From the NCBI RefSeq assembly GCF_036365525.1, contig NC_090399.1, positions 66,210,862 to 66,274,861 of the forward strand: a DNA stretch of 64,000 bases, read 5' to 3'. This document shows positions 5,691 through 30,885 of this stretch, one piece after another. Within the stretch, counting starts at the first letter, position 1; each line of letters opens with the position of its first letter. Source of the stretch: Heterodontus francisci. Taxonomy: Eukaryota. Position numbers and translations under genes: made by a program. The notes under the pieces are model-generated. The model was not told the origin of the DNA. It searched no databases and saw only the letters and a list, made by a program, of their open reading frames with translations.

Positions 5691-5832
5691 TCTACAGCAC
5701 AGTGTAGGCATGTCCCCACACACCAAATCTAGAGCCCCCTGGTTATCTAGGAGCATCAAGGATAAGATAAAGCAGAAAGAAAAGCTTATGACAATCACAA
5801 AAAACTTTAGAAAGCCTAGAGAAGTATAGAAA

Positions 5833-6138: not shown

Positions 6139-6149
6139 TATGTACCATT

Positions 6150-7760: not shown

Positions 7761-7761
7761 G

Positions 7762-9548: not shown

Positions 9549-10625
9549 GAACAAAGAACAGTACAGCACAGGAACAGGCCATTCGGCCCTCCAAGCCTGC
9601 GCCGATCTTGATGCCTGCCTAAACTAAAACCTTCTGCACTTCCGGGGACCGTATCCCTCTATTCCCATCCTATTCATGTATTTGTCAAGATGCCTCTTAA
9701 ACATTGCTATCGTATCTGCTTCCACCACCTCCCCTGGCAGCAAGTTCCAGGCACTCACCACCCTCTGTGTAACGAACTTGCCTCACACATCCCCTCTAAA
9801 CTTTGCCCCTCGCACCTTAAACCTATGTCCCCTAGTAACTGACTCTTCCACCCTGGGAAAAATCTTCTGACTATCCACTCTGTCCATGCCGCTCATAACT
9901 TTGTAAACCTCTATCATGTCGCCCCTCCACCTCCGTCGTTCCAGTGAAAACAATCCGAGTTTATCCAACCTCTCCTCATAGCTAATGCCCTCCAGAGCAG
10001 GCAACATCCTGGTAAACCTCTTCTGTACCCTCTCCAAAGCCTCCACGTCCTTCTGGTAGTGTGGCAACCAGAATTGCACGCAATATTCTAAGTATGGCCT
10101 AACTAAAGTTCTGTACAGCTGCAGCATGACTTGCCAATTTTTATACTCTATGCCCCGACCAATGAAGGCAAGCATGCCGTATGCCTTCTTGACTACCTTA
10201 TCCACCTGCGTTGACACTTTCAGTGACCTGTGGACCTATACGCCCAGATCTCTCCGCCTGTCAATACTCCTAAGTGTTCTGCCATTTACTGTATACTTCC
10301 CACCTGCATTAGACCTTCCAAAATGCATTGCCTCACATTTGTCCGGATTAAACTCCATCTGCCATTTCTCCGCCCAAGTCTCCAACCGATCTATATCCTG
10401 CTGTATCCTCTGACAATCCTCATCATTATCCGCAACTCCACCAACCTTTGTATCATCCGCAAACTTACTAATCAGACCAGATATATTTTCCTCCAAATCA
10501 TTTACATATATTACAAACAGCAAAGGTCCCAGCACTGATCCCTGCAGAACACCACTAGTCACAGCCCTCCATTCAGAAAAACACCCTTCCACTGCTCCCC
10601 TCTGTCTTCTATGACCGAACCAGAG
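9549..10625 (-). mobile_element. 5'-truncated CR1 LINE
   Basis: [29 protein letters not shown] on the minus strand; (GTTCTTT) tail at 9549. Confidence 0.9.
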
Positions 10626-11720
10626 CATGGATAGATGATTGGCTGGCTGGCAGAAAACAGACAGTATGCATAAATGGGTCCTTTTCTGAGTGGCAGGATG
10701 TGACAAGTGGAGTCTTGCAGGAGTCTGTGCTGGGGCCTTAACTTTTTACAATTTATATCAATGACTTCGATGAGGGGAGCGATGGCATGGTAACTAAATT
10801 TTCAGATGACACAAAGATAGGTAGGAAGTATGTTGTGAAGAGGATATAAGGAGGTTGCAGACCAATACAGATAGGTTGAGTGAGTGGGCAAACATCAGGC
10901 AGATGGAGTATAATGTGGGGAAATGTGAAGTTGTTCACTTTGGCAGGAAGAATAAAAAAGCAGAGTATTACTTAAACAGAGAACTACTGCAGAATTCCGA
11001 GGTGCAGAGAGATCTAGATGTTCTCGTGCATGAGTCACAAAAAGTTAGTATATAGGTACAGCAAGTGATAAAGAAGGTTCATGGAATGCTATCATTTATT
11101 ATGAGAGAAATTGAAAATAAAAGTAAGGATGTTATGCTTCAGTTAAACGGGGTATTGGTGAGGCCACATCTTGAATACTGTGTGCAGTTTTGGTCTCCAT
11201 ATTTAAGGAAGGATATAAATGCATAGGAGGCGGTTCAGAGGAGGTTTACTGGGTTGATACCTGGAATGAGCAGGTTGTCTTATGAAGAAAGGTTGGACTG
11301 GGGTGTTTTCACTGGAGTTTAGAAGAGTGAGGGGAGACTTGAAGTTTATAAGATCCTGAACGATCTTGACAAAGTGGATGTGGAAAGGATGTTTCTTCTT
11401 GTAGGTGAGTCCAGAACTAGGGGGCACTGTTTTAAAATTAGGGGTTGCCCTTTTAGGACAGAGATGAGGAGAATTTATTTTTCTCATAGAGGATTGTGCG
11501 ACTTTGGAACTCTCTGCCTCAGAAGGTGATGGAGGTGAGGTCATTTAATATTTTTAAGGCAAAGGTAGATAGATTCTTGTTAGGCAAGGTTATCGGGGTA
11601 GATGGGAATGTGGAATTCGAGACACAAACAGATAAGCCATGATCTTATTGAATGGTGGAGGAGGCTCGAGGGGCTGAATGGCCTACTTCTGCTCTTAATT
11701 CTTATGTATGTTCATCTGTT
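10626..11720 (+). mobile_element. Decayed 5'-truncated CR1 LINE
   Basis: QMEYNVGKCEVVHFG and [11 protein letters not shown] homology; typical 3' hairpin/tail near 11660-11710. Confidence 0.85.
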
Positions 11721-11874
11721 TGTATGAAATTGTATCGGGACTTGAAGGAAATAAACATGCAGGGCTTTGGGGATAGAATGAGGGAATGGGACTGACTGGA
11801 TTGCTGTACAGAGAGCTGGCATAGGCTGCATGGGCAGAATGGCCTCCTTCATATGACTCTATGCCCGTATGCCT

Positions 11875-12037
11875 CTAAGACGCACCTGAAAACCTACCTC
11901 ATTGACTGAGCTTTTGGTCGTCTTCCCTAATATCGCCTTATGTGGCTCAGTGTAATATTTTGTTTTATAACTCACCTGCGACGTGTCTTGGCACATTTTA
12001 TTATGGTAAAGGTGCTATATAAATACAAGTTGTTGGT
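11875..12037 (+). mobile_element. L2-type LINE/SINE 3' tail fragment
   Basis: CTGAAAACCTACCTC...GGTGCTATATAAATACAAGTTGTTG resembles L2-clade 3' ends. Confidence 0.45.
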
Positions 12038-12530
12038 GGGTATTTTACATTCAGTACTAGACCTACTCCCACCTGTAATGTACAGGTTCCGTGCTGAACT
12101 GAGTGTTTAAAGTCCAGGGAAAAACACTCAAAAATCACATTAAAGATTCTCAAACCTGTCATTGTGTTCAACTGGAATATTTAAATCCAGAAATATATCT
12201 CATGTCCAATAAAATTTCTAGCCACCAATGGGAACTCAGTGTTTTCCACATCATCAGTATCCGGGGAAAATCTCTCTGTGCCGGTTACCTTCAGCTTTCT
12301 AATTCAAACACTATTTGTCCAAAAGGAAACTCCAACAGTTTATGGGGATCACATTTCAAACAGAACTTTTCCCAACATTACAAAATTACTGATAACACCC
12401 AAAAAACCAAAATTTATAATTTTAACAAACACATTTAATTTCAGATTGCTTTTGTATTCTTAGTTTCCTTTCATTTGTTCTCATATTCATCAACAGATCA
12501 ACAAAGCAGCAAACATTCCCAGGACAGGTA

Positions 12531-13326
12531 ATCTGGCAGTGAGGGGACACCCCGATGGAGGTCTCTCTACGCGGGAGTCTTCCCCCTTTACATCGGGGAC
12601 CTGGGGTGGAGGGTGTTGCGCAGAGCAGTCCCGTGCAATAGACTTTTAAGTAGGTTCACGGACTCCCAGGCCGCCTGTCCTTTCTGCGGCCTGGTCGAGT
12701 CTGTGTTTCACATATATATGGAGTGTGCGAGGTTGCAGCCCCTGTTTCAGTATTTGAAGGGGCTGCTCCTCAAGTTCTGGCTGCACTTCAGTCCCACGCT
12801 CCTGATCTTTGGGCACCCGGTGAGGGGGTGCATGGGATGGGAGGAGGATCTCCTCGTCGGTCTGCTCCTGGGCCTGGCCAAGGTGGCAATTCACAGGTCC
12901 AGGCTGCAGGCCATCTGGGGGTCCGTCCTCCCTGATTGCCTGCCCCTCTTCCGCGGTTACGTTCGCGCCCGGGTGTCCCTGGAGAAGGAGTATGCGGTGT
13001 CCGGCGGTACGGTTGAGGCCTTCCATGACCGGTGGGCACCGCAGGGACAGGAGTGCATCGTCGATGCCGAAAATGGCATTTAATTTGAGTTTTTGCTTTA
13101 TTCATCTGTTTTTAATAAAGTTATTTTTTTTTAAAATGTATATAAAGGGGGCCTGAGGAATAAAGGCCCCCTCGACATAAAATATATAAAAAGGGCCTGG
13201 AGTATAAAGGTCACCTAGAAAAAAATGGGGTTAGAAAAAGAAAGGGGGCCTGAGGAATAAAGGCCCCCTCGACATAAAATATATAAAAGAGACCTGGGGT
13301 ATAAAGGCCACCTTATATTTAAAAAA
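12531..13326 (+). mobile_element. Tx1-clade non-LTR retrotransposon, 5'-truncated copy (copy 0)
   Basis: ORF 12613-13083 matches the ORF2 C-terminus of the downstream copies (CPFCGLVESVFHIYMEC zinc finger); 3' UTR hairpins and A-tail. Confidence 0.92.
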
Positions 13327-13809
13327 CGGGGTTAGATACAGAGTAAAGCTCCCTCTACACAGTCCCCATCAAATACTCCCAGGGCAGGTACAGCTCAGGG
13401 TTAGAGACAGAGTAAAGCTCCCTCTACACTGTCCTCACCAAACACTCCCAAGCCAGGTACAGCATGGGGTTAGATACAGAATAAAACTCCCTCTACACTG
13501 TCCCCATCAAATACTCCCAGGGCAGGTACAGCTCAGGGTTAGAGACAGAGTAAAGCTCCCTCTACACTGTCCTCACCAAACACTCCCAAGCCAGGTACAG
13601 CACGGGGTTAGATACAGAATAAAGCTCCCTCTACACTGTCCCCATCAAATACTCCCAGGGCAGGTGCAGCTCAGGGTAAGAGACAGAGTAAATCTCTCTC
13701 TACACTGTCCTCACCAAACACTCCCAAGCCAGGTACAGCACGGGGTTAGATACAGAATAAAGCTCCCTCTACACTGTCCCCGTCAAACACTCCCAGGACA
13801 GGTACAGCA
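13327..13809 (+). repeat. 69-bp minisatellite, exactly 7 units (Tx1 target array)
   Basis: Unit CGGGGTTAGATACAGAGTAAAGCTCCCTCTACACTGTCCCCATCAAACACTCCCAGGACAGGTACAGCA; units start at 13327, 13396, 13465, 13534, 13603, 13672, 13741. Confidence 0.95.
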
Positions 13810-14487
13810 CTGGGATTGGCTGCTGTCTGATTTGGGAGCCTGAGTGTTGAGAGCCTCAACGAGGTGCAGCTGAGAGTGCTGGTGGCAGTTGGAGGTTGCA
13901 GACGTGGAGAGAGGAGCTGCACTGAGCAAGGGAGAGCAGCTACCAACAAGCAGAGGAAAACTCCAACAACAGTCTCCATTAAAGAGAAGAAAGGGACATT
14001 TTTTGGAAACAAGGCTTTGTCTGGAGGTGGGTGCTGAACACCAGTAATTTACTTTGGACTGTTGGGGGAGGAACAAGTGGCTGGAACAACAAGGGGTGGG
14101 GCTGCCAATTCAGCAGGAATCTGTGCTGCTGCAAAACCACACAGGGAAGCTCCCTCCCCACCCCAATTGCCAAGCCTGGGTCAGCTGAAGCTGCCCAGCT
14201 AAACAGACGGAAGGGGATAGATAGTGCCTGGGCAGCTTCAGCTGACCCAGGTGAAGACGACTCCCCCAACCAGAAGACCAACTTCAAAGACTGTTTGTTT
14301 TAAGTGTACTGTGAGCACCACCTCCAGAAAGCAAGTCATCCCTTCCAGCCTGCCTTTGCCTCTCCTCTCTTACCTCAGCCTCTCCACTAACCTGTTGTTT
14401 GTTTGTTTGTCTTTTCAAATTTTTCTGTGAGTCGCTGTTATTTAGTGTGCAAGTCCACAATTTGGGGTGGGTTTAGCTCTTAGACCC

Positions 14488-16530
14488 ATGGCAAGCCCTT
14501 CATCACCGGTGGCGGGGCCCTCTACTACCTACGCAGCTGCAGCTTCTGTGGCTGCCCACGTGGCCCCGTCACCCTTTAAATTATTGACATGCAGCCATGG
14601 GGTGAAGAGCTATCCCCACCCCAACATGTCTATTGAGGCCTGCGTTAAGGCAATGGCCGTGGTTGTCGGCCCCTCGGCCATTGTTGCGGCCTCAAAGATG
14701 TATGGGAAGGCTGTGTTCTTTCTGAAGACCGAGCGGGCGGTGTCCCTGGCACTGAGTAAAGGGCTCACTGTGGGGGGGACCTTCCTGCCAGTGGACCCTC
14801 TGGGGGCCACTGCGCATCGGATAATGTTGTCCAATGTCCCACCCTTCATTCCCAGTGAGCTCCTCCTCCCCCACCTGCACCATCTAGGGGAGGTGAGGTC
14901 GGGGATCACCCCAGTCCGGCTTGGTCTTCGGGAGCACAGCCTCCAACATGTCTACTCCTTCCGCCGCCAGTTATTTATGCAGCTGGCGCGGGAGGAGGAC
15001 ACGGAGGGCCAATTTAATGTGGAGTTCCAAGGGACGGCCTACCGCGTCATTTGGACCTCGGACGGGGCGCGGTGCCACGTCTGCAAGGGGGTGGGGCATG
15101 TTCGTAAGAACTGCCCCAACCTCCCGGCCGCCAGCTCCACCTCGGCGGCCCAGAGTGGTTCCACAGCACCTCCTCCCACTCCCCCCGCACATCCAACAGA
15201 CACCGCTCAGTAGGTTCCGGAGGCTGTGGTTTTCACAGCCTCTGGCGGGGAGGGGAGCGTCCGTCCGAGCGGAAGGAAGACGCGGGGAAAAAAGAAACAT
15301 CGTGAGGCGCGTCCCCTGGACACTTTGACTCAACCCGAGCCTGAGCTCAGCCCAAAGCCCATTCCCATGGAATCCACCTGTCCCAGGGCTGGGCTCAGGC
15401 CCAGGGTGACTATAAAGGGAAAAAAGGGTGCGGAGGCGGAGGCCTCTGATGACATGGAGGTCTCTGAGTCTCCGCGCCCAAGTGCGAAAAAGAGGAGAAG
15501 GCACCCCTCCACAGAAATAACACAGGGCCCTGAGGTGCAGGGCCCATCTGTTGGAGGGGAGCTGCCTCCTGTTTCTGGTCCTCAGGTGCCCCCTACCGCC
15601 ACCACCAAGGCTACAAAGTCCGGGCAGGTGCTCCCTATTCCTCAGGATGGAGGGGAGGGGATGGCCCCGGTACATGAGGCCCCTCCTGAAGGAGTAAGTG
15701 GGGCCCTGCTTGTGGTGGGGGAGCCTGGGGAAGCTGCCCATTCCGCCACTGCTACTGGGTCGGGTGTCCTGAATGAAGGGGAGGGCGAGGCCCCAGAGGG
15801 TCGGGCCTCCCAGCCGGAGTCCACCACCAACCAGGAGACACCCGACCCAGTTATAACTGAGAATGCTGCCCCATCTGCTGGGCCTGTGGGTGCTGGCGGA
15901 GCGGGAGATCGCCTCCTCCCTCCGCCTCCAGTCTCGGCTCCGGCTGGTTTCCCGGAGTCGGGAACTTCTGTCTCCCCTGGACCACACATTGCCCTGGGGA
16001 CGGAGGTGGAGGGGGTTCCTGAACCGCTGGTGCCTACAGGCTCCAGTTTCACAATAGAACCCAGAGAGGACTCCTCCGCCATCGATCCTGGGGGTGGGAT
16101 CGTGACGGAGGCGGGACCAGCTGGCGCGGCCGGGACGTCCGCCCCACAGTGTGTGGTGGATGTGTCGGCCGCTGGCGGTGACGACCCGGAGGAGGATGGG
16201 GATTCGGTGCGGGGCACGGAGGATGATCTTGATTCCATCGCCAGTGAGGTGGTGGAGTCCCTCGTGCCTCCCACCGAATCTCCTCTCATCCCCACGGCGG
16301 AACTCCGGGATTTCCTCGCGGCTTGCAGAGGTTGCCGCAATAAAGTTCAGCTGGCCCTCGACCGTTGGTCGAATCTGGTGCTGATCATCCAGTCCATCCG
16401 TGCCGCCCTTAAGATAGCGGGCAAGCACGCGGACGTGAAACTGGTTGAGAGGCGCCGTTTTAATGTGTTCCTCAATGGGTTGCTGGGGGAGTGGAGGGCC
16501 AGGTGCACTTCCACTCCCTCCTCACAGTGA
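14488..16530 (+). pseudogene. Tx1 ORF1 (nucleic-acid-binding protein, ~680 aa) with one nonsense codon
   Basis: MASPS start, ASKMYGKAVFFL, LSNVPPFI, CHVCKGVGHVRKNC; TAG at 15211-15213 where copy C has TCG; same frame continues to 16530. Confidence 0.88.
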
Positions 16531-16562
16531 GGTGTTTGTGACGGGTTTTAATTACCTTTGAC

Positions 16563-19500
16563 ATGAAGATAACCATAGCCAGCCTCAACATCAACGGCAG
16601 CAGAGGGGCTCACCGCAGATTTCACAATCTCTCAGTCCTCAGGGAAGGGAGATACGCGGTGAGCTTTCTGCAGGAAACCCACACCGTTCCGGGAGACGAA
16701 GCCACCTGGCTCCTGGAGTGGCAGTGGGGTGGCTATCTTGTTGGCCCCGACTTTTCAGCCGGAGATCTTGGGGGTCAAGGAGCTAGTGCCGGGCCGCTTG
16801 CTCCACCTCGCCGTTCGCCTGGGTAGCGTGCCGCTCCACTTTGTGAACGTGTACGCGCCCAGGCCTGGCGCGTTGCAAGCGCGCTTCTTTGAAGAAGTGT
16901 CCGCTCTCTTGAGCTCCATCGATAGCGGCGAGTGCATCATCCTCGGGGGGGATTTTAACTGCACCCTCGAGGTGGGGGATCGCTCCAGTCCCCAGCGCGG
17001 CCAAGCGTCGGTGGAGAAGTTGAGGGGACTGATCAGCTCCCTTAACTTGGTGGACGTCTGGCAGAATCTCCATCCCGACTCCAGCGCCTTCACGTGGAGG
17101 TCTGGAGGAGGGGGGTCGCGAATCGACCGCCTCTACATTTCGCAGGCGTACGTCTCCCGCGTTTCGGCGGCCTCCATGCGGCTGGTGCCGTGCTCGGACC
17201 ACCACCTGGTGTGGGCGGAGTTTACTCCGCTCCGCACGCGGGCAGGGTCCGCGTACTGGCACTTTAACAACCGGCTGCTGGAGGACGTGCGATTTCGGGA
17301 CTCGTTCTGTCGATTCTGGGCCGACTGGAGAAGGAAGCAGGGGGGCTTCCCCTCCTTGAGGCTATGGTGGGATGTGGGCAAGACTCACATCCGCGTCTTC
17401 TGTCAGGAGTACGCGAAGGGGTCGACCAAGAGGCGGGTAGCCGAGATCGGGCGCCTTGAGAGGGAGGTGCTTGACTTGGAGTCCCGCCTCGGTCATGCCG
17501 TCGTGGACCCGGCTCTGTGGCAGGCGTACAAAGAGAAGAAGGGCGCGCTGAGGGACCTGCAGCTCATAGGGTCCCGAGGCGCGTACGTGAGGTCGCGGAT
17601 CCAGATCCTGGAAGATTTGGACCGCGCCTCTCCCTTCTTCTACTCGCTGGAAAAATGGCGGGGGGTCCGTAAGCAGCTCATCGAGCTGCTGGCCGACGAC
17701 GGATCCTCCATCACGGATCCGGAGGGAATGGGCCTCCTGGTCCGGACGTATTACAGTGCGTTGTTCTCTCCGGATCCGTCCAGCGAGGATGCGCGCAGAG
17801 TTTTGTGGGAGGACCTGCCGCAGGTCAGCCCGGAGGGCGCCGAAGGATTGGTGGCTCCGCTCACGTTGGCGGAGCTGACTGGCGCCCTCCACCAGCTCTC
17901 GTGGGGCAAATCCCCAGGGCTGGATGGGTTGACCCTGGAGTTCCTCAGGGCGTTCTGGGACGTCCTGGGGGACGATTACGCGCGGGTCCTGGGGGAAAGC
18001 CTGGCGACCGGGGAGATGCCCCTCTCGTGGCGCAGGGCGGTCATCGTCCTGCTGCCGAAGAGGGGCGATCTCCGCCTGCTTAAAAACTGGCGTCCGGTCT
18101 CCCTCCTCAGCACGGATTATAAGATCTTTGCCCGGGCTATGTCTACCCGCCTGTGCTCCGTGCTGGCCCACATGATCCACCCCGACCAGTCCTACACAGT
18201 CCCGGGCCGGTCCATCCAGGACAACATCCACCTGGTCCGGGACCTGATCCATCTTTCCCAGAGGACTGGTCAGTCGGTCGCCTTTCTCTCCCTCGATCAG
18301 GAGAAGGCGTTCGACAGGGTGGATCACGATTACCTTTTCGGGACTCTGCGCGCTTTCGGACTCGGGCCGCATTTCGTGGCCCGGGTCCGACTTTTATACG
18401 CCGCCGCAGAGTGTCTAGTCAAAGTTAACGGGTCCTTGACGGCGCCCCTTCGCTTTGGGAGAGGAGTGCGTCAGGGGTGCCCCATGTCCGGCCAATTGTA
18501 TACCATCTGCGTGGAGCCCTTCCTGTGCCTGCTTCGCAGGAGGTTGACGGGATTGGCTCTGCGCGAGCCGGCCATGCGGGTCGTCCTCTCGGCTTACGCC
18601 GACGACGTGCTCCTCGCAATCACAGATCCCGTTGACTTGCGGAGGATGCGCGACTGCCAGCAGACCTTTTCTGCCGCGTCCTCCGCGAGGATCAATTGGG
18701 AGAAATGTTCCGGACTCCTGGTTGGTCAGTGGCGGGTGGACTCCCTGCCGGAGGAGATGACACCTTTTGCGTGGAGAACCACGCACCTCCTCTATCTGGG
18801 AGTCCACCTTAGCCCCGCTGAGGAAGCCTGGCCGGCAAACTGGCAGGAGTTGGAGGCGAAAGTCACCGCTCGGCTGGGGCGCTGGACAGGACTGCTCCGA
18901 GTGCTTTCCTACAGGGGCCGAGTGTTGGTCATAAACCAACTGGTGGCCTCCATGCTGTGGTACCGGTTGGTCACTTTGGCCCCGCCCCCTGTATTTGCCA
19001 CCAAGATCCGGAAGAAACTCATCGATTTCTTCTGGGGCAAGAGGAAACACTGGGTCTCTGCCGCGGTCCTGAGTCTCCCGATCGAGGAGGGCGGTCAGTC
19101 GCTGGTGTGCGTCCGCACCCAGGCTGCGACTCTCCGCCTTCGGACCCTGCAGAGATACCTGTACGTCGAGCGTCCTCCCAGATGGTGTGCGCTGGCGACG
19201 TATTTTTTCCGCCAGTGTCACTGCCTTCAAGACGACACGCAGCTCCCGGTGGAGTCCGTTAGCCGCGCCTCTCTGAGGGAGTTGCCTGTCTTTTACCGGG
19301 ATCTTTTCCGAGTCTGGAACATGGTCGCCTCCAGTCAGGGCGCTCCCCCGCCGGCGGAGGAGAGCGCCTCGGCTGTCCGGGCGGCCGACTCCGGGGACGG
19401 TCCGGCGGGCGGAGGAGTAGCCGAAACCCCCGGGACGCCCCTCACTGCGGGTGGCGAGGGGGCTCGGGAGTGCGGAGCGATCCCGGCCGAGCTGACCCCC

Positions 19501-20262
19501 GCTCGGCCGGAACTGCTCATCGGACCCAGGCCCCGAAACCCTCCTCGGGAGCCAGTCCCGCACAACCCGAGCCGCCTCTCGGAAATGCCCTCCGTGCCAT
19601 TCCAATCGGCGCGGAGGGGTTTCCTGTACGGGCTGCTCCTGCACACTCTCCACTTCCTCGCCCTCGTCAGCCGGCCGGACACGCCCTGGCGGTCCGCGTT
19701 GCCATCTGGCGGCGAGGGGAAACCTCGATGGAGGTCTCTCTCCGCGGGAGTCTTCCCCCTTTACATCGGGGACCTGGGGTGGAGGGTGCTGCACAGAGCA
19801 GTCCCGTGCAATAGGCTTTTAAGTAGGTTCACGGACTCCCAGGCCACCTGTACTTTCTGCGGCCTGGACGAGTCCGTGTTCCACGTTTATACGGAGTGTG
19901 CGAGGTTGCAGCCCCTATTTGAGTATCTGAAGGGGCTGCTCCTCAAATTCTGGCTGCACTTCAGTCCCACGCTCCTGATCTTTGGGCACTCGGTGCGGAG
20001 GGGCTTGGGCCGGGAGGAGGATCTCCTCGTCGGTCTGGTCCTGGGCCTGGCCAAGGTTGCAATTCACAGGTCCAGGTTGCGGGCCGTCGGGGGGTCCGTC
20101 CTCCCCGATTGCCTGCCCCTCTTCCGCGGTTACGTTCGCGCCCGGGTGTCCCTGGAAAAGGAGCATGCGGTGTCTGCCGGTACGCTTGAGGCCTTCCGCG
20201 ACCGGTGGGCAACGCAGGGACTGGAGTGCATAGTCGACGCCGAGAATGGCATTTTAATTTGA
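16563..20262 (+). pseudogene. Tx1 ORF2 (APE endonuclease, reverse transcriptase, CCHC finger), frameshifted by a 38-bp deletion
   Basis: SLNING, FLQETH, GGDFN, RIDR, SDH; KNWRPVSLL, LDQEKAFDRV, GVRQGCP, AYADD; CTFC..H..C; 38 nt missing at ~16724 relative to copy B. Confidence 0.92.
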
Positions 20263-20400
20263 GTTTTTTGTTTATTTATCTGTTTTTAATAGTGATTTTA
20301 AAAATATAAGTGTGTATATAAAGGGGGCCTGAGGAATAAAGGCCCCCTCGACATACAAAATATATATAATGGGGGCCTGAGGAATAAAGGCCCCCTCGAC

Positions 20401-20638
20401 AAAAAAAAAACGGGGGTTCGATACAGAGTAAAGCTCCCTCTGCACTGTCCCCATCAAACACTCCCAAAAAAAAAGAAAAAAAAACGGGATTACATACAGA
20501 GGAAAGCTCCCTCCACACAAAAAAAAACGGGGTTTGATACAGAGTAAAGCTCCCTCCACAAAAAAAAAAACGGGGTTTGATACAGAGTAAAGCTCCCTCG
20601 ACACTGTCCCATTAAACACTCCCAGGACAGGTACAGCA
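20401..20638 (+). repeat. Stack of poly(A) tracts alternating with truncated and full 69-bp target units
   Basis: Units start at 20411, 20485, 20528 and 20571, each directly after an A-run; only the last is complete. Confidence 0.9.
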
Positions 20639-21346
20639 CAGGGATTGGCTGGTCAATTTGGAGCACTTCCTGCCAGCAATCAGGGGGAGCAGCTGCACCT
20701 GTGTTGCTGCAACTGGAGAGGAGAGAGGAGACTGGAGTTACTGCAGAGAGGTGACTGTAGACAGCTGTATTTACTGTGGAACTGTTGCACTTTTTCAAGA
20801 CTAAGAAGACCTGAGAGTCATTTTGGAGAGGTGGGTGTTGGAACACCAGAGAACTGTTGGTTGTTTGGACTGTTGGGGGAGGGAGAAGGCACCGGAAGAT
20901 CCAGGGGTGGGGCTGCCAAATTCTATAGGGAGCCCCTGTACGAGCTCTTGTGTTTATCTGCCATCCTGCACAAAAGGGGCTCCCTCCCCACCCCCAACTG
21001 TGTGGCTCGGGACGGCTGGAGCTGCCCGGCTGAAGAAAATCCTTATACAACAACAGAAAAGGGAGAGAACCGGGCGGCTCTAACCGACCCGGGCGAAGAA
21101 CCCTCCCCTAACTGGAAGAGTGGACTGTCGACTCTGCAGGAAGGTGCTCCAACCACCAATTGAAGTGTAACATCCTTGCAGCTGTTCTCTCTCTTCCATC
21201 ACTCGGCCACCTATCCTCTCCTCTCCTTGTCCTTTTCAGCCCTATCCTCCTCTATTCCCATCCCCCCCTCCCCCATCATATTGCTTGTGTTAAAGAAAAC
21301 TGTCGTGTGTTTTGTTTCTTGGGGGTGGGCGTAGCTCTGCGACCCC

Positions 21347-23378
21347 ATGGCAAGCCCCTCTTTGCCGGTGGCGGGGCCTTCCCGTTCATATGCTGCTGCG
21401 GCTGCACCTGTTGCCCCGTCACCGTTTGCTTTATTAACATCGAAGCATGGGGTCAAGAGCTATGTCCACCCAAACATGACTATAGAGGCATGCATGAAAG
21501 CAATGGCCGAGGTTGTCGGCCCTTCGGCCATTGTTGCAGCCTCTAAAATGTACGGGAAGGCAGTGTTTTTCCTGAAGACCGAGCGGGCGGTGTCCCTGGC
21601 TCTGAGCAAGGGGCTCACCGTGGGCGGGACCTTTCTGCCAGTGGACCCCCTGGAGGCCACTGCGCAAAGGCTCATTCTATCCAATGTCCCGCCCTTCATT
21701 CCTGGTGAGCTCCTCCTTCCCCACCTGCACCATCTGGGGGAGGTAAAGACGGGGCTCACCCCAGTCCCGCTCAGTCTTCGGGAGAACAGCCTCCGACACG
21801 TGTACTCCTTCCGCCGCCAGTTATTCATGCAGCTGGCGCGGGTGGAGGTGACAGAGGGCCACTTTAATATAGAATTCCAGGGGACGGCCTACCGCGTCTT
21901 CTGGACCTTGGACGGGGTGCGGTGCCATGTCTGTAAGGGGGTGGGGCATGTTCGTAAGAACTGCCCCAACCTCCCGGCTGCCAACTCCAACTTGGCGGCC
22001 CAGGTTGGCGACGCTGCACCTCCTCCCACCCCCCCCTACACCTCCACCAGATACCATTCAGTCGGTACCGGAGGCTGTGGTTTTCACGGCCTCCGGCAGG
22101 GAGGGGGGTGACCGTCCAAGTGGAAGGAAGGCGCGGAGGAGAAATAAACATCGAGAGGCGCGTCCCCTGGACACCGTGAGACTACCCGAGTCTGAGATCA
22201 GCACAAAGCCCGATCTCGGGAAGTCAACTTGCCCCAGGGCTGGGCTCAGGGCCAGGGTGAATAAAAAAAAGGAGAGTGTGGAGGTGGAGGCCTCTGATGA
22301 TATGGAGGTCTCTGAGCCTCCGCACACAACTGGGAAAAAGAGGAGAAGGCACCCCTCCACAGAGGTAACAAGGGGCCCTGAGGCGCAGGGCCCATCTGTT
22401 GGAGGGGAGCTGTCTCCTGTTTCGGGTCCCCAGGCTTCCCCTACCGCCACCACCAAGGCTGCAAAGTCCGGGCAGGAGCACTCTATTCCTCAGGATGGAG
22501 GGGAGGGGAAGGCCCCGGTACTTGAGGCCCCTCCTGAAGGAGTAAGTGGGGCCCTGCTTGTGGTGGGGGAGCCTGGGGACTCCGCCCATTCTGCCACTGC
22601 TACTGGGTCGGGTGCTCTGAATGAAGGGGAGGGCGAGGCCCCAGAGGGTCGGGCCTCCCAGCCGGAGTCCACCACCAACCAGGAGACACCCGACCCAGTT
22701 ATAACTGAGAATGCTGCCCCATCTGCTGGGCCTGTGGGTGCTGGCGGAGCGGGAGATAGCCTCCTCCCTCTGCCTCCAGTCTCGGCTCCGGCTGGTTTCC
22801 CGGAGTCCGGAACTTCTGTCTCCCCTGGACCACACATTGCCCTGGGGACGGAGGTGGAGGGGGTTCCTGAACCGCTGGTGCCTACAGGCTCCAGTTTCAC
22901 AATAGAACCCAGAGAGGACTCCTCCGCCATCGATCCTGGGGGTGGGATCGTGACAGAGGCGGGACCAGCTGGCGCGGCCGGGACGTCCGCCCCACAGTGT
23001 GTGGTGGATGTGTCGGCCGCTGGCGGTGACGACCCGGAGGAGGATGGGGATTCGGTGCGGGGCACGGAGGATGATCTTGATTCCATCACCAGTGAGGTGG
23101 TGGAGTCCCTCGTGCCTCCCACCGAATCACCTCTCATCCCCACGGCGGAACTCCGGGATTTCCTCGCGGCTTACAGGGGTTGCCGCAATAAACTACAGCT
23201 GGCCCTCGACCGTTGGTCGAATCTGGCGCTGATCATAGAGTCCGTCCGTGCCGCTCTTAAGATAGCGGGCAAGCGTGCGGACGTGAAACTGATTGAGAGG
23301 CGCCGTTTTAATGTGTTCCTCAATGGGTTGCTGGGGGAGTGGAGGGCCAGGTGCACTTCCACTCCCTCCTCACAGTGA
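21347..23378 (+). pseudogene. Tx1 ORF1, frameshifted near a C-run (~22030)
   Basis: ORFs 21347-22111 and 21927-23378 together match copy A ORF1 in different frames. Confidence 0.88.
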
Positions 23379-23410
23379 GGTGTTTGTGTCGGGTTTTAAG
23401 TACCTTTGAC

Positions 23411-26400
23411 ATGAAGATAACCATAGCCAGCCTCAACATCAACGGCAGCAGAGGGGCTCACCGCAGATTTCACAATCTCTCAGTCCTTAGGGAAGGGAGA
23501 TACGCGGTGAGCTTTCTGCAGGAAACCCACACCGTTCCGGGAGACGAAGCCACCTGGCTCCTGGAGTGGCAGGGTGGGGTCTACATGAGTCACCTCACCC
23601 CTATTTCTAGTGGGGTGGCTATCTTGTTGGCCCCGACTTTTCAGCCGGAGATCTTGGGGGTCAAGGAGCTCGTGCCGGGCCGCTTGCTCCACCACGCCGT
23701 TTGCCTGGGTAGCGTGCCGCTCCACTTTGTGAACGTGTACGCGCCCAGGCCCGGCGCGTTGCAAGCGCGCTTCTTTGAAGAAGTGTCCGCTCTCTTGAGC
23801 TCCATCGATAGCGGCGAGTGCATCATCCTCGGGGATTTTAACTGCACCCTCGAGGTGGGGGATCGCTCTGGTCCCCAGCGTGGCCAAACGTCGGTGGAGA
23901 AGTTGAGGGGACTGATCAGCTCCCTTAACTTGGTGGACGTCTGGCGGAATCTCCATCCCGACTCCAGCGCCTTCACGTGGAGGTCTGGAGGAGGGGGGTC
24001 GCGAATCGACCGCCTCTCCATTTCGCAGGTGTACGTCTCCCGCATTTCGGCGGCCTCCATGCGGCTGGTGCCGTGCTCGGACCACCGCCTGGTGTGGGCG
24101 GAGTTTACTCCGCGCCGCATGCGGGCGGGGTCCGCGTACTGGCACTTGAACAACCGGCTGCTGGAGGACGTGCGATTTCGGGACTCGTTCTGTCGATTCT
24201 GGGCCGACTGGAGAAGGAAGCAGGGGGGCTTCCCCTCCTTGAGGCTATGGTGGGATGTGGGCAAGACTCACATCCGCGTCTTCTGTCAGGAGTACGCGAA
24301 GGGGTCGACCAAGAGGCGGGAAGCCGAGATCGGGCGCCTTGAGAGGGAGGTGCTCGACTTGGAGTCCCGCCTCGGTCATGCCATCGTGGACCCGGCCCTG
24401 TGGCAGGCGTACAAAGAGAAGAAGGGCGCGCTGAGGGACCTGCAGCTCATAGGGTCCCGAGGCGCGTACGTGAGGTCGTGGATCCAGATCCTGGAAGATT
24501 TGGACCGCGCCTCACCCTTCTTCTACTCGCTGGAATAATGGCGGGGGGTCCGTAAGCAGCTCGTCGAGCTGCTGGCCGACGACGGATCCTCCATCACGGA
24601 TCCGGAGGGAATGGGCCTCCTGGTCCGGACTTATTACAGTGCGTTGTTCTCTCCGGATCCGTCCAGCGAGGATGCGCGCAGAGTTTTGTGGGTGGACCTG
24701 CCGCAGGTCAGCCCGGAGGGCGCCGAAGGATTGGAGGCTCCGCTCACGTTGGCGGAGCTGACTGGCGCCCTCCACCGGCTCTCGAGGGGCAAATCCCCAG
24801 GGCTGGATGGGTTGACCGTGGAGTTCCTCAGGGCGTTCTGGGACGTCCTGGGGGAAAGCCTGGCGACCGGGGAGATGCCCCTCTCGTGGCGCAGGGCGGT
24901 CATCGTCCTGCTGCCGAAGAGGGGCGATCTCCACCTGCTTAAAAACTGGCGTCCTGTCTCCCTCCTCAGCACGGATTATAAGATCTTTGCCCGGGCTATG
25001 TCTACCCGCCTGGGCTCCGTGCTGGCCCACATGATCCACCCCGACCAGTCCTACACGGTCCCGGGCAGGTCCATCCAGGACAACATCCACCTGGTCCGGG
25101 ACCTGATCCATCTTTCCCAGAGGACTGGTCAGTCGGTCGCCTTTCTCTCCCTCGATCAGGAGAAGGCGTTCGACAGGGTGGATCACGATTATCTTTTCGG
25201 GACTCTGCGCGCTTTGGGACTCGGGCCGCATTTCGTGGCCCGGGTCCGACTTTTATGCGCCGCCGCAGAGTGTCTAGTCAAAGTTAACGGGTCCTTGACG
25301 GCGCCCCTTCGATTTGGGAGAGGAGTGCGTCAGGGGTGCCCCATGTCCGGCCAATTGTATACCATCTGCGTGGAGCCCTTCCTGTGCCTGATTCGCAGGA
25401 GGCTGACGGGATTGGCTCTGCGCGTGCTGGCCATGCGGGTCGTCCTCTCGGCTTACGCCGACGACGTGCTCCTCGCAATCACAGATCCCGTTGACTTGCG
25501 GAGGATGCGCGACTGCCAGCAGACCTTTTCTGCCACGTCCTCCGCGAGGATCAATTGGGAGAAATGTTCCGGACTCCTGGTTGGTCAGTGGCGGGTGGAC
25601 TCCCTGCCGGAGGAGATGACACCTTTTGCGTGGAGAACCACGCACCTCCTCTATCTGGGAGTCCACCTTAGCCCCGCTGAGGAAGCCTGGCCGGCAAACT
25701 GGCAGGAGTTGGAGGCGAAAGTCACCGCTCGGCTGGGGCGCTGGACAGGACTGCTCCGAGTGCTTTCCTACAGGGGCCGAGCGTTGGTCATAAACCAACT
25801 GGTGGCCTCCATGCTGTGGTACCGGTTGGTCACTTTGGCCCCGCCCCCTGTATTTGCCACCAAGATCCAGAAGAAACTCGTCGATTTCTTCTGGGGCAAG
25901 AGGAAACACTGGGTCTCTGCCGCGGTCCTGAGTCTCCCGATCGAGGAGGGCGGTCAGTCGCTGGTGTGCGTCCGCACCCCGGCTGCGACTCTCCGCCTTC
26001 GAACCCTGCAGAGATACCTGTACGTCGAGCATCCTCCCAGATGGTGTGCGCTGGCGACGTATTGTTTCCGCCAGTGTCACTGCCTTCAAGACGACACGCA
26101 GCTCCCGGTGGAGTCCGTTAGCCGCGCCTCTCTGAGGAAGTTGCCTGTCTTTTACCGGGATCTATTCCAAGTCTGGAACATGGTCGCCTCCAGTCAGGGC
26201 GCTCCCCCGCCGGCGGAGGAGAGCGCCTCGGCTGTCCGGGCGGCCGACTCCGGGGACGGGTCGGCGGGCGGAGGAGTAGCCGAAACCCCCGGGACGCCCC
26301 TCACTGCAGGTGGCGAGGGGGCTCGGGAGTGCGGAGCAATCCCGGCCGAGCTGACACCCGCTCGGCCGGAACTGCTCATCGGACCCAGGCCCCGAAACCC

Positions 26401-27121
26401 TCCTCGGGAGCCGGTCCCGCACAACCCGAGCCGCCTCTCGGAAATGCCCTCCGTGCCATTCCAATTGGCGCGGAGGAGTTTCCTGTACGGTCTGCTCCTG
26501 CACACTTTCCACTTCCTCGCCCTCATGAGCCGGCCGGACACGCCCTGGCGGTCCGCGTTGCCATCTGGCGGCGAGGGGATACCCCGATGGAGGTCTCTCT
26601 ACGCGGGAGTCTTCCCCCTTTACATCGGGGACCTGGGGTGGAGGGTGCTGCACAGAGCAGTCCCGTGCAATAGGCTTTTAAGTAGGTTCACGGACTCCCA
26701 GGCCACCTGTACTTTCTGCGGCCTGGATGAGTCCGTGTTCCACATTTATACGGAGTGTGCGAGGTTGCAGCCCCTATTTGAGTATCTGAAGGGGCTGCTC
26801 CTCAAATTCTGGCTGCACTTCAGTCCCACGCCCCTGATCTTTGGGCACCCAGTGCGGAGGGGCTTGGGCCGGGAGGAGGATCTCCTCGTCGGTCTGCTCC
26901 TGGGCCTGGCCAAGGTGGCAATTCACAGGTCCAGGTTGCGGGCCGTCGGGGGGTCCGTCCTCCCCGATTGCCTGCCCCTCTTCCGCGGTTATGTTCGCGC
27001 CCGGGTGTCCCTGGAAAAGGAGCATGCGGTGTCCGCCGGCAGGCTTGAGACCTTCCGCGACCGGTGGGCACCGCAGGGACTGGAGTGCATTGTCGACGCC
27101 GAGAATGGCATTTTAATTTGA
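23411..27121 (+). pseudogene. Tx1 ORF2 with one nonsense codon and two in-frame deletions
   Basis: ATG at 23411; TAA at 24536-24538 where copy A has AAA; ILGDF vs ILGGDF; DVLGES vs DVLGDDYARVLGES. Confidence 0.92.
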
Positions 27122-27258
27122 GTTTTTTGTTTATTTATCTGGTTTTAATAAAGTTATTTTAAAAATATAAGTGTGTATATAAAGGGGGCCTGAGGAATAA
27201 AGGCCCCCCTCAACATAAAAAATATATAAAAGGGGCCTGGGGTATAAAGGTCACCTTG

Positions 27259-27397
27259 AAAAAAAAAATGGGGGTTAGAAAAAAAAACGGGGTTAGATAC
27301 AGAGTAAAAAAAAAGAAAAAAAAAAACGGGGTTAGATACAGAGTCAAGCTCCCTCTACACTATCCACATCAAACACTCGCAGGACAGGAAAAAAAAA
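27259..27397 (+). repeat. Second stack of poly(A) and truncated 69-bp target units
   Basis: Units start at 27269, 27288 and 27327 (about 10, 18 and 62 nt), each after an A-run; the final A-run abuts the 5' end of copy C. Confidence 0.9.
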
Positions 27398-30300
27398 CTG
27401 GGATTGGCTCCTCTCTGATTGGGAATACTGAGTGCTGAGTGCCTCAATGAGGTGCAGCTGACAGTGCTGCAGTCAGTTGCTGGAGAGGGAGAGCTGAGGA
27501 GGGAACTGCAAAAAAACCTTTCAACAACTTTTGCTGCAGAGGAGGAAAGACTTTGAAAAAGGCTGTATTTCGAGCACAAAACTTTCATTTCATTTGGACT
27601 GTTGTGGGAGATGAAAGAGGCCAGAAGAACAAGGGGTGGGGGCTATACAATTCTGCAGGGAGCTGTGCAGTTGCACTGAAGTTGCAGGGAAGCTCCCTCC
27701 CCACCTCAATTGCCCAGCCTGAGTCAGCTGAAGCTGCCTGGATAATAGAGACATAAGGATCGAACTAGAGCCTGGGTAGCTTTCGGCTGACCCAGGTGAA
27801 GACCCCTCCCACAACCAGAAGACCGGAAGACCAAAAGTGTTTACAGTGCTCTGAGTACCACCCTTTAAGGGGAAAAAAAGCAAAGTCATCGCTTGCAGCC
27901 TGTCTTTCCCATTTCCTGTATACCCTCAGTCTCTCCCCAAACCTCCTAGTTGGTTTCTTTGTTTGTTTGCTTGCTTGCTTACCTGCAAATTGGGGGTGGG
28001 TTTGGCTCTTGAGCCATGGCAAGCCCATCATCACCGGTGGCGGGGCCTTCTCATACCTATGCGGCTGTAGCCTCTGTGGCCACCCGTGTGACCCCGTCAC
28101 CTTTTAAATTCATTACTTCAAGCCATGGGGTAAAGAGCTAACCCCACCCCAATATGTCTATAGAGGCCTGCGTAAAGGCAATGGCCGAGGTTGTCGGCCC
28201 CTCGGCCATTGTGGCAGCCTCAAAAATGTACGGGAAGGCTGTGTTCTTCCTGAAGACCGAGCGGGCCGTGTCCCTGGCCCTGAGTAAAGGGCTCACTGTG
28301 GGTGAGACTTTCCCGCCGGTGGACCCTCTAGGGGCCACTGCGCAGCGGATAATCTTATCAAACGTCCCGCCCTTTATTCCCAGTGAGCTCCTCCTTCCCC
28401 ACCTGCACCACATGGGGGAGGAGAGGTCGGGGATCACCCCAGTCCGGCTTGGTCTTCGGGAGCACAGCCTCCAACATGTCTACTCCTTCCGCCGCCAGGT
28501 ATTTATGCAGCTGGCGCGGGAGGAGGACTCGGATGGCCAATTTAATGTGGAGTTCCAGGGGACGGTCTACCGCGTCTTTTGGACCTCGGACGGGGCGCGG
28601 TGCCATGTCTGCAAGGGGGTGGGGCATGTTCGTAAGAACTGCCCCAACCTCCCGGTCGCCAGCTCCACCTCGGCAGCCCAGGGTCCTCCCACTCCCCCCA
28701 CACATCCAACAGACACCGCTCAGTCGGTTCCGGAGGCTGTGGTTTTCACAGCCTCCAGCGGGGAGGGGACCGCCCGTCTGAGTGGAAGGAAGACGCGGAG
28801 GCAAAAGAAACATCAAGAGGCGCGTCCCCTGGACACATTGAAACAACCCGAGCCTGAGCTCAGCCCAAAGCCCGTTCTCACGGAATCCACCTGTCCCAGG
28901 GCTGGGCTCAGGCCCAGGGTGACCAAAAAAAAGGAGGGTGCGGAGGCGGAGGCCTCTGATGACATGGAGGTCTCTGAGCCTCTGCGCCCTAGTGTGAAAA
29001 AGAGGTGAAGGCACCCCTCCACAGAGGTAACGAGGGGCCCTGAGGCGCAGGGCCCATCTGTTGGAGGGGAGCTGTCTCCTGTTTCGGGTCCCCAGGTTTC
29101 CCCTACTGCCACCACCAAGGCTACAAAGTCCAGGCAGGAGCTCCCTATTCCTCAGGATGGAGGGGAGGGGAAGGCCCCGGTACTTGAAGCCCCTCCTGAA
29201 GGAGTAAGTTGGGCCCTGCTTGTGGTGGGGGAGCCTGGGGACGCCGCCCATTCTGCCACTGCTACTAGGTCGGGTGCCCTGAGTGAAGGGGAGGGTGAGG
29301 CCGAGGCCCCAGAGGGTCGGCCCTCCCAGCCGGAGTCCACCACCAACATGGAGACACCTGACCCGGTTATAACCAAGAATGCTGCACCATCTGCTGGGCC
29401 TGTGGGTGCTGGTGGAGCTGGAGATGGCCTCCTCTCGCCGCCTCCGGTCTCGGCTCCGGCTGGATTTCCGGAGTCGGGAACTTCTGTCTCCCCTGGACCA
29501 CTCATTGGCCTGGGGACGGAGGTGGAGGGGGGTCCTGAACTGCTGGCGCCCACAGGCTCCAGTTTCACAGTAGAACCCAGAGAGGACTCCTCCGCCATCG
29601 ATCCTGGGGGTGGGATCGTGACGGAGGCAGGGCCAGCTGGCGCGGCTGGGACATCCGCCCCACAGTGTGTGGTGGATGTGTCGGCCACTGGCGGTGACGA
29701 TCCGGAGAAGGATGGGGATTCGGTGCGGGGCACGGAGGATGATCTTGATTCCATCGCCAGTGAGGTGATGGAGTCCCTCGTGCCTCCCACCGAATCTCCT
29801 CTCATCCCCACGGCGGAACTCCGGGATTTCCTCGCGGCTTGCAGGGGTTGCCGCAATAAAGTTCAGCTGGCCCTCGACCGTTGGTTGAATCTGGCGCTGA
29901 TCATCCAGTCCGTCCGTGCCGCCCTTAAGATAGCGGGCAAGCGCGCAGACGTGAAACTGGTTGAGAGGCGCCGTTTTAATGTGTTCCTCAATGGGTTGCT
30001 GTGGGAGTGGAAGGCCAGGTGCACTTCCACTCCCTCCTCACAGTGAGGTGTTGGTGACGGGTTTTAAGTACCTTTGACATGAAGATAACCATAGCCAGCC
30101 TCAACATCAACGGCAGCAGGGGGTCTCACCGCAGATTTCACAATCTCTCAGTCCTTGGGGAAGGGAGATACGCGGTGAGCTTTCTGCAGGAAACCCACAC
30201 CGTTCCGGGAGACGAAGCCACCTGGCTCCTGGAGCGGCAGGGTGCAGCCCTTCTTTGAATATTTAAAGGGGTTGCCCCTCAAGCTTTGGCTGCACTTCAG

Positions 30301-30460
30301 CCCCACGCTCCTGATCTTTCAGCACCTGGTGTGAAGGGGGGTGTGTCAGGAGGAGGATCTCCTCGTCAGTCTGCTCCAGGGCCTGGCCAAGGTGGCAATT
30401 CACGGGTCCAGGTAGTGGGCAGTTGGGGAGTCCGTTTGACTTATTGCCTGCCCCTTTTCT
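27398..30460 (+). mobile_element. Tx1-clade copy C: 5' UTR, disrupted ORF1, start of ORF2 joined to a diverged ORF2 C-terminal fragment
   Basis: ORF1 ATG 28016, frameshift ~28103, TGA 29006, end 30046; ORF2 ATG 30079 breaks at ~30243 into a ...QPFFEYLKG.. region. Confidence 0.9.
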
Positions 30461-30462
30461 GA

Positions 30463-30885
30463 GCATACGAAGATACGAATTAGGAGCAGGAGTAGGCCAC
30501 TCGGCCGTTCGAGCCTGCTCTGCCATTCAATAAGTTCATGGCTGAACTGATTACTCCACATTTCCACCCAGCCCCAATAACTTTCCACCCCTTTGCTTAT
30601 CAAGAATCTATCTACCTCTGTCTTAAACATATTCAAAGACTCTGCTTCTACCGCCTTTTGAGGAAGAGAATTCCAAAGACTTACGATCTTCTGAGAGAAA
30701 AAATTTCTCCTCATCTCTGTCTTAAATGGGCAACCCCTTATTTTTAAACAGTGACTCCTAGTCCTAGATTCTCCTATAAGGGGAAACATCCTTTCCACAT
30801 CCACCCTGTCAAGATCCCTCAGGATCTTATATGTTTCAATCAAGTCACCTCTTACTCTTCTAAACTCCAGCAGATACAAGCCTAG
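30463..30885 (-). mobile_element. CR1 LINE 3' end
   Basis: LEFRRVRGDLIETYKIL...RRNFFSQ on the minus strand plus tail. Confidence 0.85.

Follow-up and report, generated by a model that had tools for sequence, protein, structure and literature searches.

A stack of A-runs and pieces of a 69-bp minisatellite unit occupies positions 20401-20638 of the window (the whole stretch of DNA that was analysed, 64 kb), and parsing of the sequence confirmed it as a real feature. The stack sits at the 3' end of E2, a Tx1-lineage LINE, and is one of three at which tails of such elements alternate with pieces of their own target. The explanation that we lean towards for the stacks is serial 3' read-through capture (3' transduction). 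This was one of two models in the original prediction, and it proved the best-supported origin, but the structure of the captured pieces lends no support to the corollary attached to it there, by which the element would carry and spread its own target. The stacks are described below together with the elements that carry them, the geometry of their insertion site, and the alternative origins that have to be weighed.

The element train and its lineage

The cluster is a head-to-tail train on the plus strand, made up of E1, E1b, an array of intact 69-bp units, E2, the stack, E3, stack C, and half of E4 (Table 1). All element copies have interrupted frames. E3 carries a frameshift in ORF1 and an in-frame stop in ORF2, while E2, besides the stop in its ORF1, has a 38-nt deletion near the start of ORF2 relative to E3. 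The 3' tails are A-rich, consisting of A-runs behind AATAAA/TATAAA hairpins, and in E2 the native tail begins 18 nt past the first base of the second AATAAA.

Table 1. Features of the element cluster, with positions in the window
Feature	Positions	Strand	Basis
Unit 3'-end remnant (unit ~41-64), left edge of original array	12507-12530	+	
E1, 5'-truncated Tx1-lineage copy: ORF2 end, 3' UTR, hairpins HP1 and HP2	12531-13218	+	
Stack A: A7, 9-nt target piece TGGGGTTAG, A5GA3	13219-13243	+	
E1b, second copy of terminal hairpin pair only (HP1 and diverged HP2), ends A6	13241-13326	+	
Seven intact 69-bp minisatellite units, 138-bp dimer structure	13327-13809	+	
E2, full-length Tx1-lineage LINE with 5' UTR, ORF1, ORF2, 3' UTR	13810-20400	+	
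E2 ORF1, CCHC knuckle, in-frame stop at 15211-15213	14488-16530	+	
E2 ORF2: APE-type endonuclease, RT, C-terminal Cys/His motif	16563-20262	+	
Two near-identical 48-bp 3'-terminal repeats of E2, each a 9-bp stem with AATAA(A) at loop (HP1)	20315-20400	+	
Native tail of E2, A10	20401-20410	+	sequence parse
Piece 1, unit 1-54, 55 nt with extra G in G-run, A8>C, A31>G	20411-20465	+	
A9GA9 spacer	20466-20484	+	
Piece 2, unit 1-34, 34 nt, G5>A, G9>C, T18>G, T30>C	20485-20518	+	
A9 spacer	20519-20527	+	
Piece 3, unit 1-32, 32 nt, A8>T and T30>C	20528-20559	+	
A11 spacer	20560-20570	+	
Piece 4, resident full unit, 68 nt, one C of C-run missing	20571-20638	+	
E3, full-length Tx1-lineage LINE, ends HP1-HP2	20639-27258	+	
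Stack C: A10, TGGGGGTTAG, A9, unit 1-18, A9GA11, unit 1-62, A9	27259-27397	+	
E4, 5' half of third full-length-type copy	27398-30240	+	

Within 16663-20259 the Pfam models Exo_endo_phos (E 2.4e-11) and RVT_1 (E 3.6e-38) were matched, and the CCHC zinc knuckle of ORF1 reads CHVCKGVGHVRKNC. The ORF2 product is 49% identical to the 149-kDa protein of Xenopus Tx1 over 98% of its length and 93% identical to a predicted protein of Heterodontus francisci over 29%. A reverse transcriptase tree of 27 rows (24 chosen from 120 listed matches, together with E2, E3, and a CR1 of the window, and holding no named L1, Keno, Kibi or Dewa reference) recovered a 100/100 clade of E2/E3, a Hemitrygon record, Xenopus Tx1, turtle records, and an Acipenser-labelled record, in which E2/E3 are sister to the Hemitrygon record. 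On the features examined, the element is thus classed by its sequence as a member of the Tx1 lineage, and the family may already stand in the Repbase/Dfam catalogue. From these relationships a shark is the most probable host.

Over the shared ORF2 end, E1 is 91.6% identical to E2 and 91.8% identical to E3, and so is equally distant from both. E1b lies directly behind the tail of E1, with a second short insertion, a template jump or a duplication in the donor as candidate origins. E2 and E3 differ at 84 of 3573 sites in the ORF2 region (2.35%), whereas the 5' UTRs of the full-length-type copies are mutually only 57-75% identical (about 60-68% between E3 and E2), and the copies are therefore read as separate insertions of mosaic subfamilies and not as a tandem duplication. 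When 13810-15500, 20639-22300, and 27398-29100 were compared, E2 stood nearer to E4 in the 5' UTR and early ORF1, and from about 15800 on it is 96-99% identical to E3. Mosaic subfamilies of this kind suggest that 5' ends have been swapped. At about 30239, just past the start of ORF2, E4 joins a diverged (82%) Tx1 3' fragment, and this fragment (30239-30463) gives way to CR1-like sequence near 30464, so that the cluster has lost its right end.

The 5' UTRs of E2, E3, and E4 keep a stem of 25 pairs (14175-14251, about 21005-21094, and about 27717-27797). Among these three sequences, four of the pairs are changed on both sides and three are broken in one sequence, and the stem is likely a functional RNA or DNA element. 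The three 5' ends (13810-13821, 20639-20650, and 27398-27409) open with C-T/A-GGGATTGGCT, within which lies what we take to be an inverted CCAAT motif. It is possible that this start serves as an internal promoter element.

A phase-specific and near-blunt insertion site

The insertion point is the boundary between two 69-bp units, GGTACAGCA/CGGGG, and the three full-length-type copies begin C-T/A-GGGATTGG. Within this window insertion into the 69-bp repeat is phase-specific, as in target-specific Tx1 families: a single unit phase is found at 3/3 full-length-type 5' ends and at all 3 tail stacks. E2 and E3 are each preceded by a unit ending in GGTACAGCA. If an element and the stack behind it are taken as one cargo, the flanks of E2 are GGTACAGCA/CGGGG, which is how an intact boundary reads, and E3 is flanked by GGTACAGCA/CTGGG, as found at the junction between the array and E2. 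The bracket around an element and its cargo duplicates only 0-2 nt, which is too short to be diagnostic of a target-site duplication (TSD) pair.

This geometry bears on the second model of the original prediction, in which repeated poly(A)-only insertions at one nick create TSDs of variable length. Such duplications would place copies of the same sequence on both sides of an insertion, but the unit before E2 (array unit 7) differs from piece 1 at 5/54 positions and from piece 4 at 6/69, while piece 4 differs from the 62-nt piece behind E3 at 7/62. Upstream of E1 there is only a 24-nt remnant of the unit, and about 5 nt of target are lost at its 5' junction. A 64-nt TSD for E1 was considered and ruled out, the match extending over just 24 nt. 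Because the left units are not copies of the right units and E1 shows a small loss, insertion here is near-blunt, with a duplication of 0-2 nt or the loss of a few bases, and the insertions of E1-E3 have no long TSDs. The 62-nt piece is likewise without a right-hand copy, and pieces 1, 2, and 4 are too diverged to be TSDs unless the stack predates E2. The model does accommodate the nested variants of the stack (C30 in pieces 2 and 3, T8 in pieces 3 and 4), which fit a left-to-right order of age with equal parsimony. Tandems with a TSD sandwiched between copies are also known for the Tx1-mobilised SINEU-3 (PMC4494074) and for R1 with its 33-nt duplications (10.1101/158386). In the present stacks, however, sandwich lengths would run from 9 to 62 with none characteristic, and only the comparison of piece 3 with piece 4 fits (1 difference in 32). 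Variable-length TSDs are therefore disfavoured, and we regard them as an improbable origin of the stacks.

The endonuclease of Tx1L is reported to read about 10 bp around its cut (PMC1919474). The 5' junction of the element preserves 9/10 of the bases around the cut, and new copies can therefore land before old ones, which explains the train. The junction of an A-run with CGGGG keeps the downstream half-site only, so the captured pieces are probably not targets themselves. It is on this point that the idea of an element spreading its own target lacks support, as the insertion site is represented in 7/7 truncated pieces by its downstream half alone. None of them reaches the unit end ACAGCA, which precedes both full-length insertions.

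Structure of the stacks

The coordinates of the stack at 20401-20638 and the lengths of its pieces (55, 34, 32, and 68 nt) had been given correctly in the original prediction, and 4/4 pieces do start, as claimed, at one base, the C of CGGGG that is base 1 of the 69-bp unit. Four truncated units with variable stops had been described. Truncation holds for pieces 1-3, but piece 4 is a full unit that is followed by E3 with no A-run, and it forms both the right flank of the E2 insertion and the left flank of the E3 insertion. The stops do vary, although those at 34 and 32 may be one and the same, their ends differing by a single C/A. The GTTTG variant (A8>T) is indeed common to the last two units, pieces 3 and 4. 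Beyond this earlier observation, the T30>C of piece 3 is also present in piece 2, and pieces 2 and 3 stand in a 43-bp register without indels.

The same architecture is found in stack A, with its single piece of 9 nt, and in stack C, where the pieces measure 10, 18, and 62 nt (the last at 27327-27388) and E4 begins immediately behind the stack, without an intervening full unit. The window contains 13 runs of at least 8 A, and 10 of these lie inside the stacks at 20401-20638 and 27259-27397, a clustering that is more than chance. Three A-runs are broken by one G, namely A5GA3 (13235-13243), A9GA9 (20466-20484), and A9GA11 (27306-27326). The single G could have arisen by substitution, be the last base left over from an element end, or have been added without a template between two tails.

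Proposed read-through capture and its rivals

Serial capture would proceed in a few steps. The element inserts at the unit boundary GGTACAGCA/CGGGG with a 0-2 nt duplication, a step that can be read from the junctions. A transcript of the inserted copy would then read beyond the element's poly(A) signal and end tens of bases into the unit, giving an RNA that closes with the tail, unit 1 to k, and a new tail. Read-through would always capture from unit base 1 because each donor has unit base 1 directly behind its tail. Target-primed reverse transcription would copy the tailed piece into a new boundary, and repeats of the cycle would stack pieces that share a start and vary in their stops. In the case of E2, pieces 1 and 2 would have been brought along as the first and second captured flanks, with piece 4 as the resident unit. 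A tail may also be trimmed back through use of an upstream AATAAA, as is suggested by E2, which has neither HP2 nor the 9-mer.

The arrangement of the pieces is consistent with such a process, as are the flanks that E2 and E3 regain once element and stack are counted as one cargo. All of the truncated pieces (7/7) are contiguous with an element tail, and each is closed by an A-run. A-runs stand at 6/6 boundaries of the stack at 20401-20638 and stack C as against 0/6 in the array (Fisher P=0.002, a value that overstates the case because the array units are related and not independent). Inheritance of a captured piece is suggested by E1 and E3, both of which end in HP2, an A-run, TGGGG(G)TTAG, and a further A-run, though their bodies are about 8% apart. 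The C>T of this shared 9-10-nt piece is found at 1/10 other CG-type unit starts, a rarity which argues that the piece was inherited with the element end; both elements lie in one cluster, so an old gene conversion keeps some probability.

The main rival is one that the original prediction did not contain, poly(A)-only insertion with deletion of target. Here pieces 1, 2, and 4 would be consecutive resident units, each boundary having been struck by a severely truncated insertion of which just an A-run stayed behind, with 7-60 nt lost upstream of the cut, and a fixed start, a variable stop, and divergence at the level of the array would all follow without transduction. Losses of this kind have a local precedent: at this site the truncated E1 is about 5 nt short of target, and 7 nt would have to be deleted to give the 62-nt piece. 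The stop of that piece lies 2 nt from where E1 joins and fits a small target deletion as well as it fits capture. Solitary poly(A) insertions and target-site deletions are known products of L1 (10.1101/2024.08.27.596794; PMC4859970), and target deletions have been inferred for the site-specific Utopia elements (PMC4640811). The deletions would, however, have to accompany 5-6 poly(A)-only events, all of them beside tails and none at the 6 internal boundaries of the array, and they leave the 9-10-nt piece common to E1 and E3 unexplained. We consider this origin unlikely.

The age of the pieces narrows the choice further. Pieces 1, 2, and 4 carry 9 substitutions in 157 nt (homopolymer indels dropped) and differ mutually by 11-21%, a divergence like that among unrelated units of the array. 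Were they younger than E2, taken as half the E2-E3 distance, 1.9 substitutions would be expected (P=1.4e-4, or P=1.5e-3 with the synonymous rate). Duplication after E2 is therefore excluded, while a stack older than E2 is still compatible with the count. A local nested order, with piece 1 followed by 2 and then by 3 and 4, needs the same 9 substitutions and is ruled out only if the stack is younger than E2.

Divergence also counts against slippage or unequal exchange at the DNA level as the only process, in which one junction of tail and unit is duplicated repeatedly through short homology, either the CCCTC-N-ACA that the hairpin end shares with unit 25-33 or single A's. Slippage fits piece 3 well, with its 43-bp period, lack of indels, and chimeric variants, and it fits the 48-bp duplication of the hairpin; the hairpin end also resembles unit 14-33. 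Against this, pieces 1, 2, and 4 stand 11-21% apart, and at the stops 9, 18, 54, and 62 the homology of this kind amounts to no more than 0-3 A's. Slippage without conversion, moreover, cannot give the inheritance seen between E1 and E3, whose neighbouring 3' UTRs differ. We give it very little credence as the sole origin.

Alternatively, the pieces of a stack could have been joined within one insertion by template jumping. The reverse transcriptase would copy short polyadenylated RNAs that start at unit base 1, jump from the 5' end of each to the next tail, and end on the element RNA, which would yield the same architecture along with unrelated variants. All three full-length elements begin with C at the boundary phase, as would suit this route, and a template switch or jump has been proposed for the 5' additions of SINEU, which is thought to be mobilised by Tx1-Mar (PMC4494074). 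The route nevertheless presupposes a putative class of short RNAs from the unit, and each of the two complete full-length copies would have required several jumps. An Rfam scan of 13000-14000 gave one weak match only (E=0.28, far under the gathering score), and the piece common to E1 and E3 points to inheritance instead. Template jumping thus seems a very improbable source of the stacks.

An artefact of assembly or base calling is scarcely credible. Homopolymer lengths are uncertain in long reads, and both the extra G of piece 1 and the missing C of piece 4 are homopolymer indels. The pieces, however, differ by substitutions, the architecture is seen at three junctions, and E2 retains an open frame of 1199 codons with few 1-nt indels relative to E3.

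Read-through capture has its own difficulties, among them the places where the pieces stop. At 4 native tails the tail starts 16-21 nt after the signal hexamer, and the 32/34 stop, 17 nt beyond the first base of the AGTAAA in piece 3, lies inside that range and speaks for capture. For the 9/10-nt pieces the distance from TATAAA to the stop is 32 and 36 nt, for piece 1 the distance from AGTAAA is 39 nt, and the 18- and 62-nt pieces lack all of the 12 tested hexamers within 60 nt. The spacing of poly(A) signals therefore fits only 1 independent stop, and since the remaining stops are 32-39 nt off or have no hexamer, A-rich upstream sequence or non-canonical tailing would have to serve for them. 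Stops fall before an A in 4/5 or 4/6 cases (P=0.04-0.09), which does not separate the models. The occurrence of T>C and T>G at base 30 in adjacent pieces is a coincidence under capture.

Piece 3 and the terminal hairpin

Piece 3 is identical to piece 4 through base 29 (A8>T) and to piece 2 from base 30 (T30>C), and it has no private changes. It is probably a later, local duplication of 43 bp that produced a chimera of pieces 4 and 2. Piece 4 would have been misaligned on piece 2, with the 5' part of piece 3 derived from piece 4 and its end and A-run from piece 2, and such a duplication accounts for both common variants, the equal spacing, and the lack of private changes. The stack would then stand for two captures plus one local duplication rather than four rounds. 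Local duplication had already been suggested for the last pair of units, correctly as it appears, and a 43-bp event at the DNA level explains the pair at least as well as a TSD. Alternatively, piece 3 may have arisen as a TSD of 32 nt or have hopped in from some closely related unit.

The 3' terminus of the element itself folds into a 9-bp stem, at whose loop the poly(A) signal lies (z=-3.8). For 30 nt of hairpin HP1, the best alignment among 138 phase and strand choices falls on unit 2-32, and its score was reached by 25-86 of 20000 shuffles across four controls, for a likeness that was noticed first and tested afterwards. An unanchored local test was weaker, with the score reached by 51 of 3000 shuffles and by 11 of 1166 windows of the element body. 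HP1 ends at the same base as the 32-nt piece. No resemblance to the unit was found for HP2, whose score was reached by 1385 and 2093 of 3000 shuffles.

A doubtful interpretation of this likeness is that the element builds its 3' UTR from its own target, HP1 being an ancient captured unit 1-32 that has hardened into an AATAAA stem. Were it true, a single ratchet of capture, fixation, and trimming would have produced HP2, the inherited 9-mer, and the present stacks as its successive layers. As heritable lineage barcodes, the stacks would then give the order of hops between minisatellite arrays, with the 5' end of the element regenerating the cut site for the next copy. Alternatively, the likeness of HP1 to the unit could reflect convergence of two poly(A)-signal contexts.

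The 69-bp array and its surroundings

The array at 13327-13809 is built of two alternating unit types (a 138-bp higher-order repeat with 95% matches), and unrelated units in it differ by 9-15%. None of its internal boundaries is interrupted (0/6). In units 3, 5, and 7, AATAAA replaces AGTAAA. No further likeness to the unit was found upstream of 12507, and the 64-kb window holds no 69-bp units outside the element cluster. The repeat is presumably one that is abundant in shark genomes. Two other readings of the unit were tried. That it is a structured RNA was rejected for now, given a fold z of -0.79 and the single weak Rfam match. That it is part of the 5' end of the element, as a promoter monomer, was rejected for E2 because the unit before E2 carries the GAATAAA variant of array units 3 and 5.

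Elsewhere in the window, an older Tx1-like ORF2 fragment lies outside the cluster at 4660-4805 and is 76% identical to E2. The regions 1-12500 and 30464-46800 hold many mutually similar LINE fragments on both strands, which we take to be CR1-like, and the frame 30755-32221 contains an RT domain. Some pairs of these fragments across the cluster are 95% identical and inverted (2749-3480 with 31567-32298, and 9550-10243 with 32992-33687). From 46840 to 64000 there follows a series of C-rich satellites with a strong strand skew: a 72-bp repeat in 19 copies, a 47-bp repeat in about 41 copies, and one of 30/60/90 bp that covers more than 12 kb. The very long ORFs of this region are stop-free repeat frames.

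Searches, novelty, and significance

Frame translations of the stack and the array found no match in protein collections (8000 candidates at E 1e-5, 0 at E 0.001, and 7 candidates at E 0.01). Exact-pattern scans for stray host DNA gave 0 matches; they covered prokaryotic genomes only and are uninformative on eukaryotic ones. The same applies to the search for a donor locus or a second copy of pieces 1 or 2, none of which appeared in the protein and prokaryotic proxies. For five unit motifs, the sole match in the full-text literature was an unrelated yeast paper. The literature searched, which consisted mostly of non-subscription texts, contained no shark Tx1 in a 69-bp repeat and no same-phase target stacks. 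The accessible portions of PMC5537684, PMC10620051, and 10.1101/2025.06.08.657570 (0 occurrences of 'Tx1') likewise hold nothing on same-phase stacks.

Read-through, polyadenylation, target-primed reverse transcription, and tandem insertion are all known, as is serial 3' transduction for L1. What is new here, within the literature searched, is same-phase capture of an element's own target, a variant of L1 transduction. The surprise is moderate, as the component steps are all known and the evidence comes from one cluster. If capture is the true origin, each copy holds an ordered record of ancestral arrays, and the lineages from master to daughter of a site-specific LINE could be traced in the vertebrate germ line, as has been possible with human and mouse L1 transductions. 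The stacks would also show how the 3' end of a site-specific element grows and is trimmed. The junctions, for their part, define what appears to be a near-blunt and minisatellite-phase-specific insertion site for a vertebrate Tx1 endonuclease.

Comparison with known systems

The closest parallel to the stacks is serial 3' transduction by L1, in which a tail is followed by a short flank piece, an A-run, the next piece, and another A-run, and in which the earlier piece was inherited from the donor (PMC5932605). In a mouse L1 TF insertion described there, a 16-bp piece lies between poly(A)52 and poly(A)33 and a 682-bp piece between poly(A)33 and poly(A)38, and the donor had carried the 16-bp piece before. 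The flank pieces of L1 stem from random sites and are unrelated, unique sequences, whereas here site-specific insertion means that every piece represents one minisatellite in one phase; the L1 donor is documented, while the donors here are presumed. Judged by sequence, the stacks thus belong only in part to the L1-type class of serial 3' transduction.

In the layout of the element itself, with two ORFs, APE and RT domains, and a repeated target, the family resembles Tx1 of Xenopus laevis (Tx1L) and the target-specific Tx1 clade (Keno, Kibi, Koshi, and Tx1-Mar), as set out in PMC4494074. The targets named there are Tx1D, U2, and a microsatellite, in contrast to the 69-bp minisatellite, although the legend of Fig. 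3 lists satellite targets for some Tx1 families (PMC4494074). The junctions described here duplicate 0-2 nt, and stacked target pieces do not occur in the accessible text of that account. Head-to-tail trains at one target with target fragments between the elements are known from SINEU-3 (PMC4494074) and Drosophila R1 (10.1101/158386). There, however, a single TSD of fixed length stands between two elements, unlike the several pieces of variable length found here, with their A-runs and no long TSD.

The site-specific APE elements SART1Bm and R1Bm also live in repeats, and target-like bases near the 3' end of their RNA can join in priming (PMC7265360). There, reverse transcription starts at the target-like bases and nothing is captured, whereas in the present stacks a further A-run follows and the target bases are copied.

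By analogy, the stack can be viewed as the 3' mirror of the 5' tags of Drosophila HeT-A. Those tags accumulate as a string, each closed by an oligo(A). In both systems, pieces derived from a neighbour are added by transcription across a boundary and preserve a record of earlier rounds, as 10.1101/782904 relates for HeT-A. HeT-A tags are 5' additions supplied by the element upstream (10.1101/782904), while the pieces described here stand at the 3' end and would come from the downstream target.
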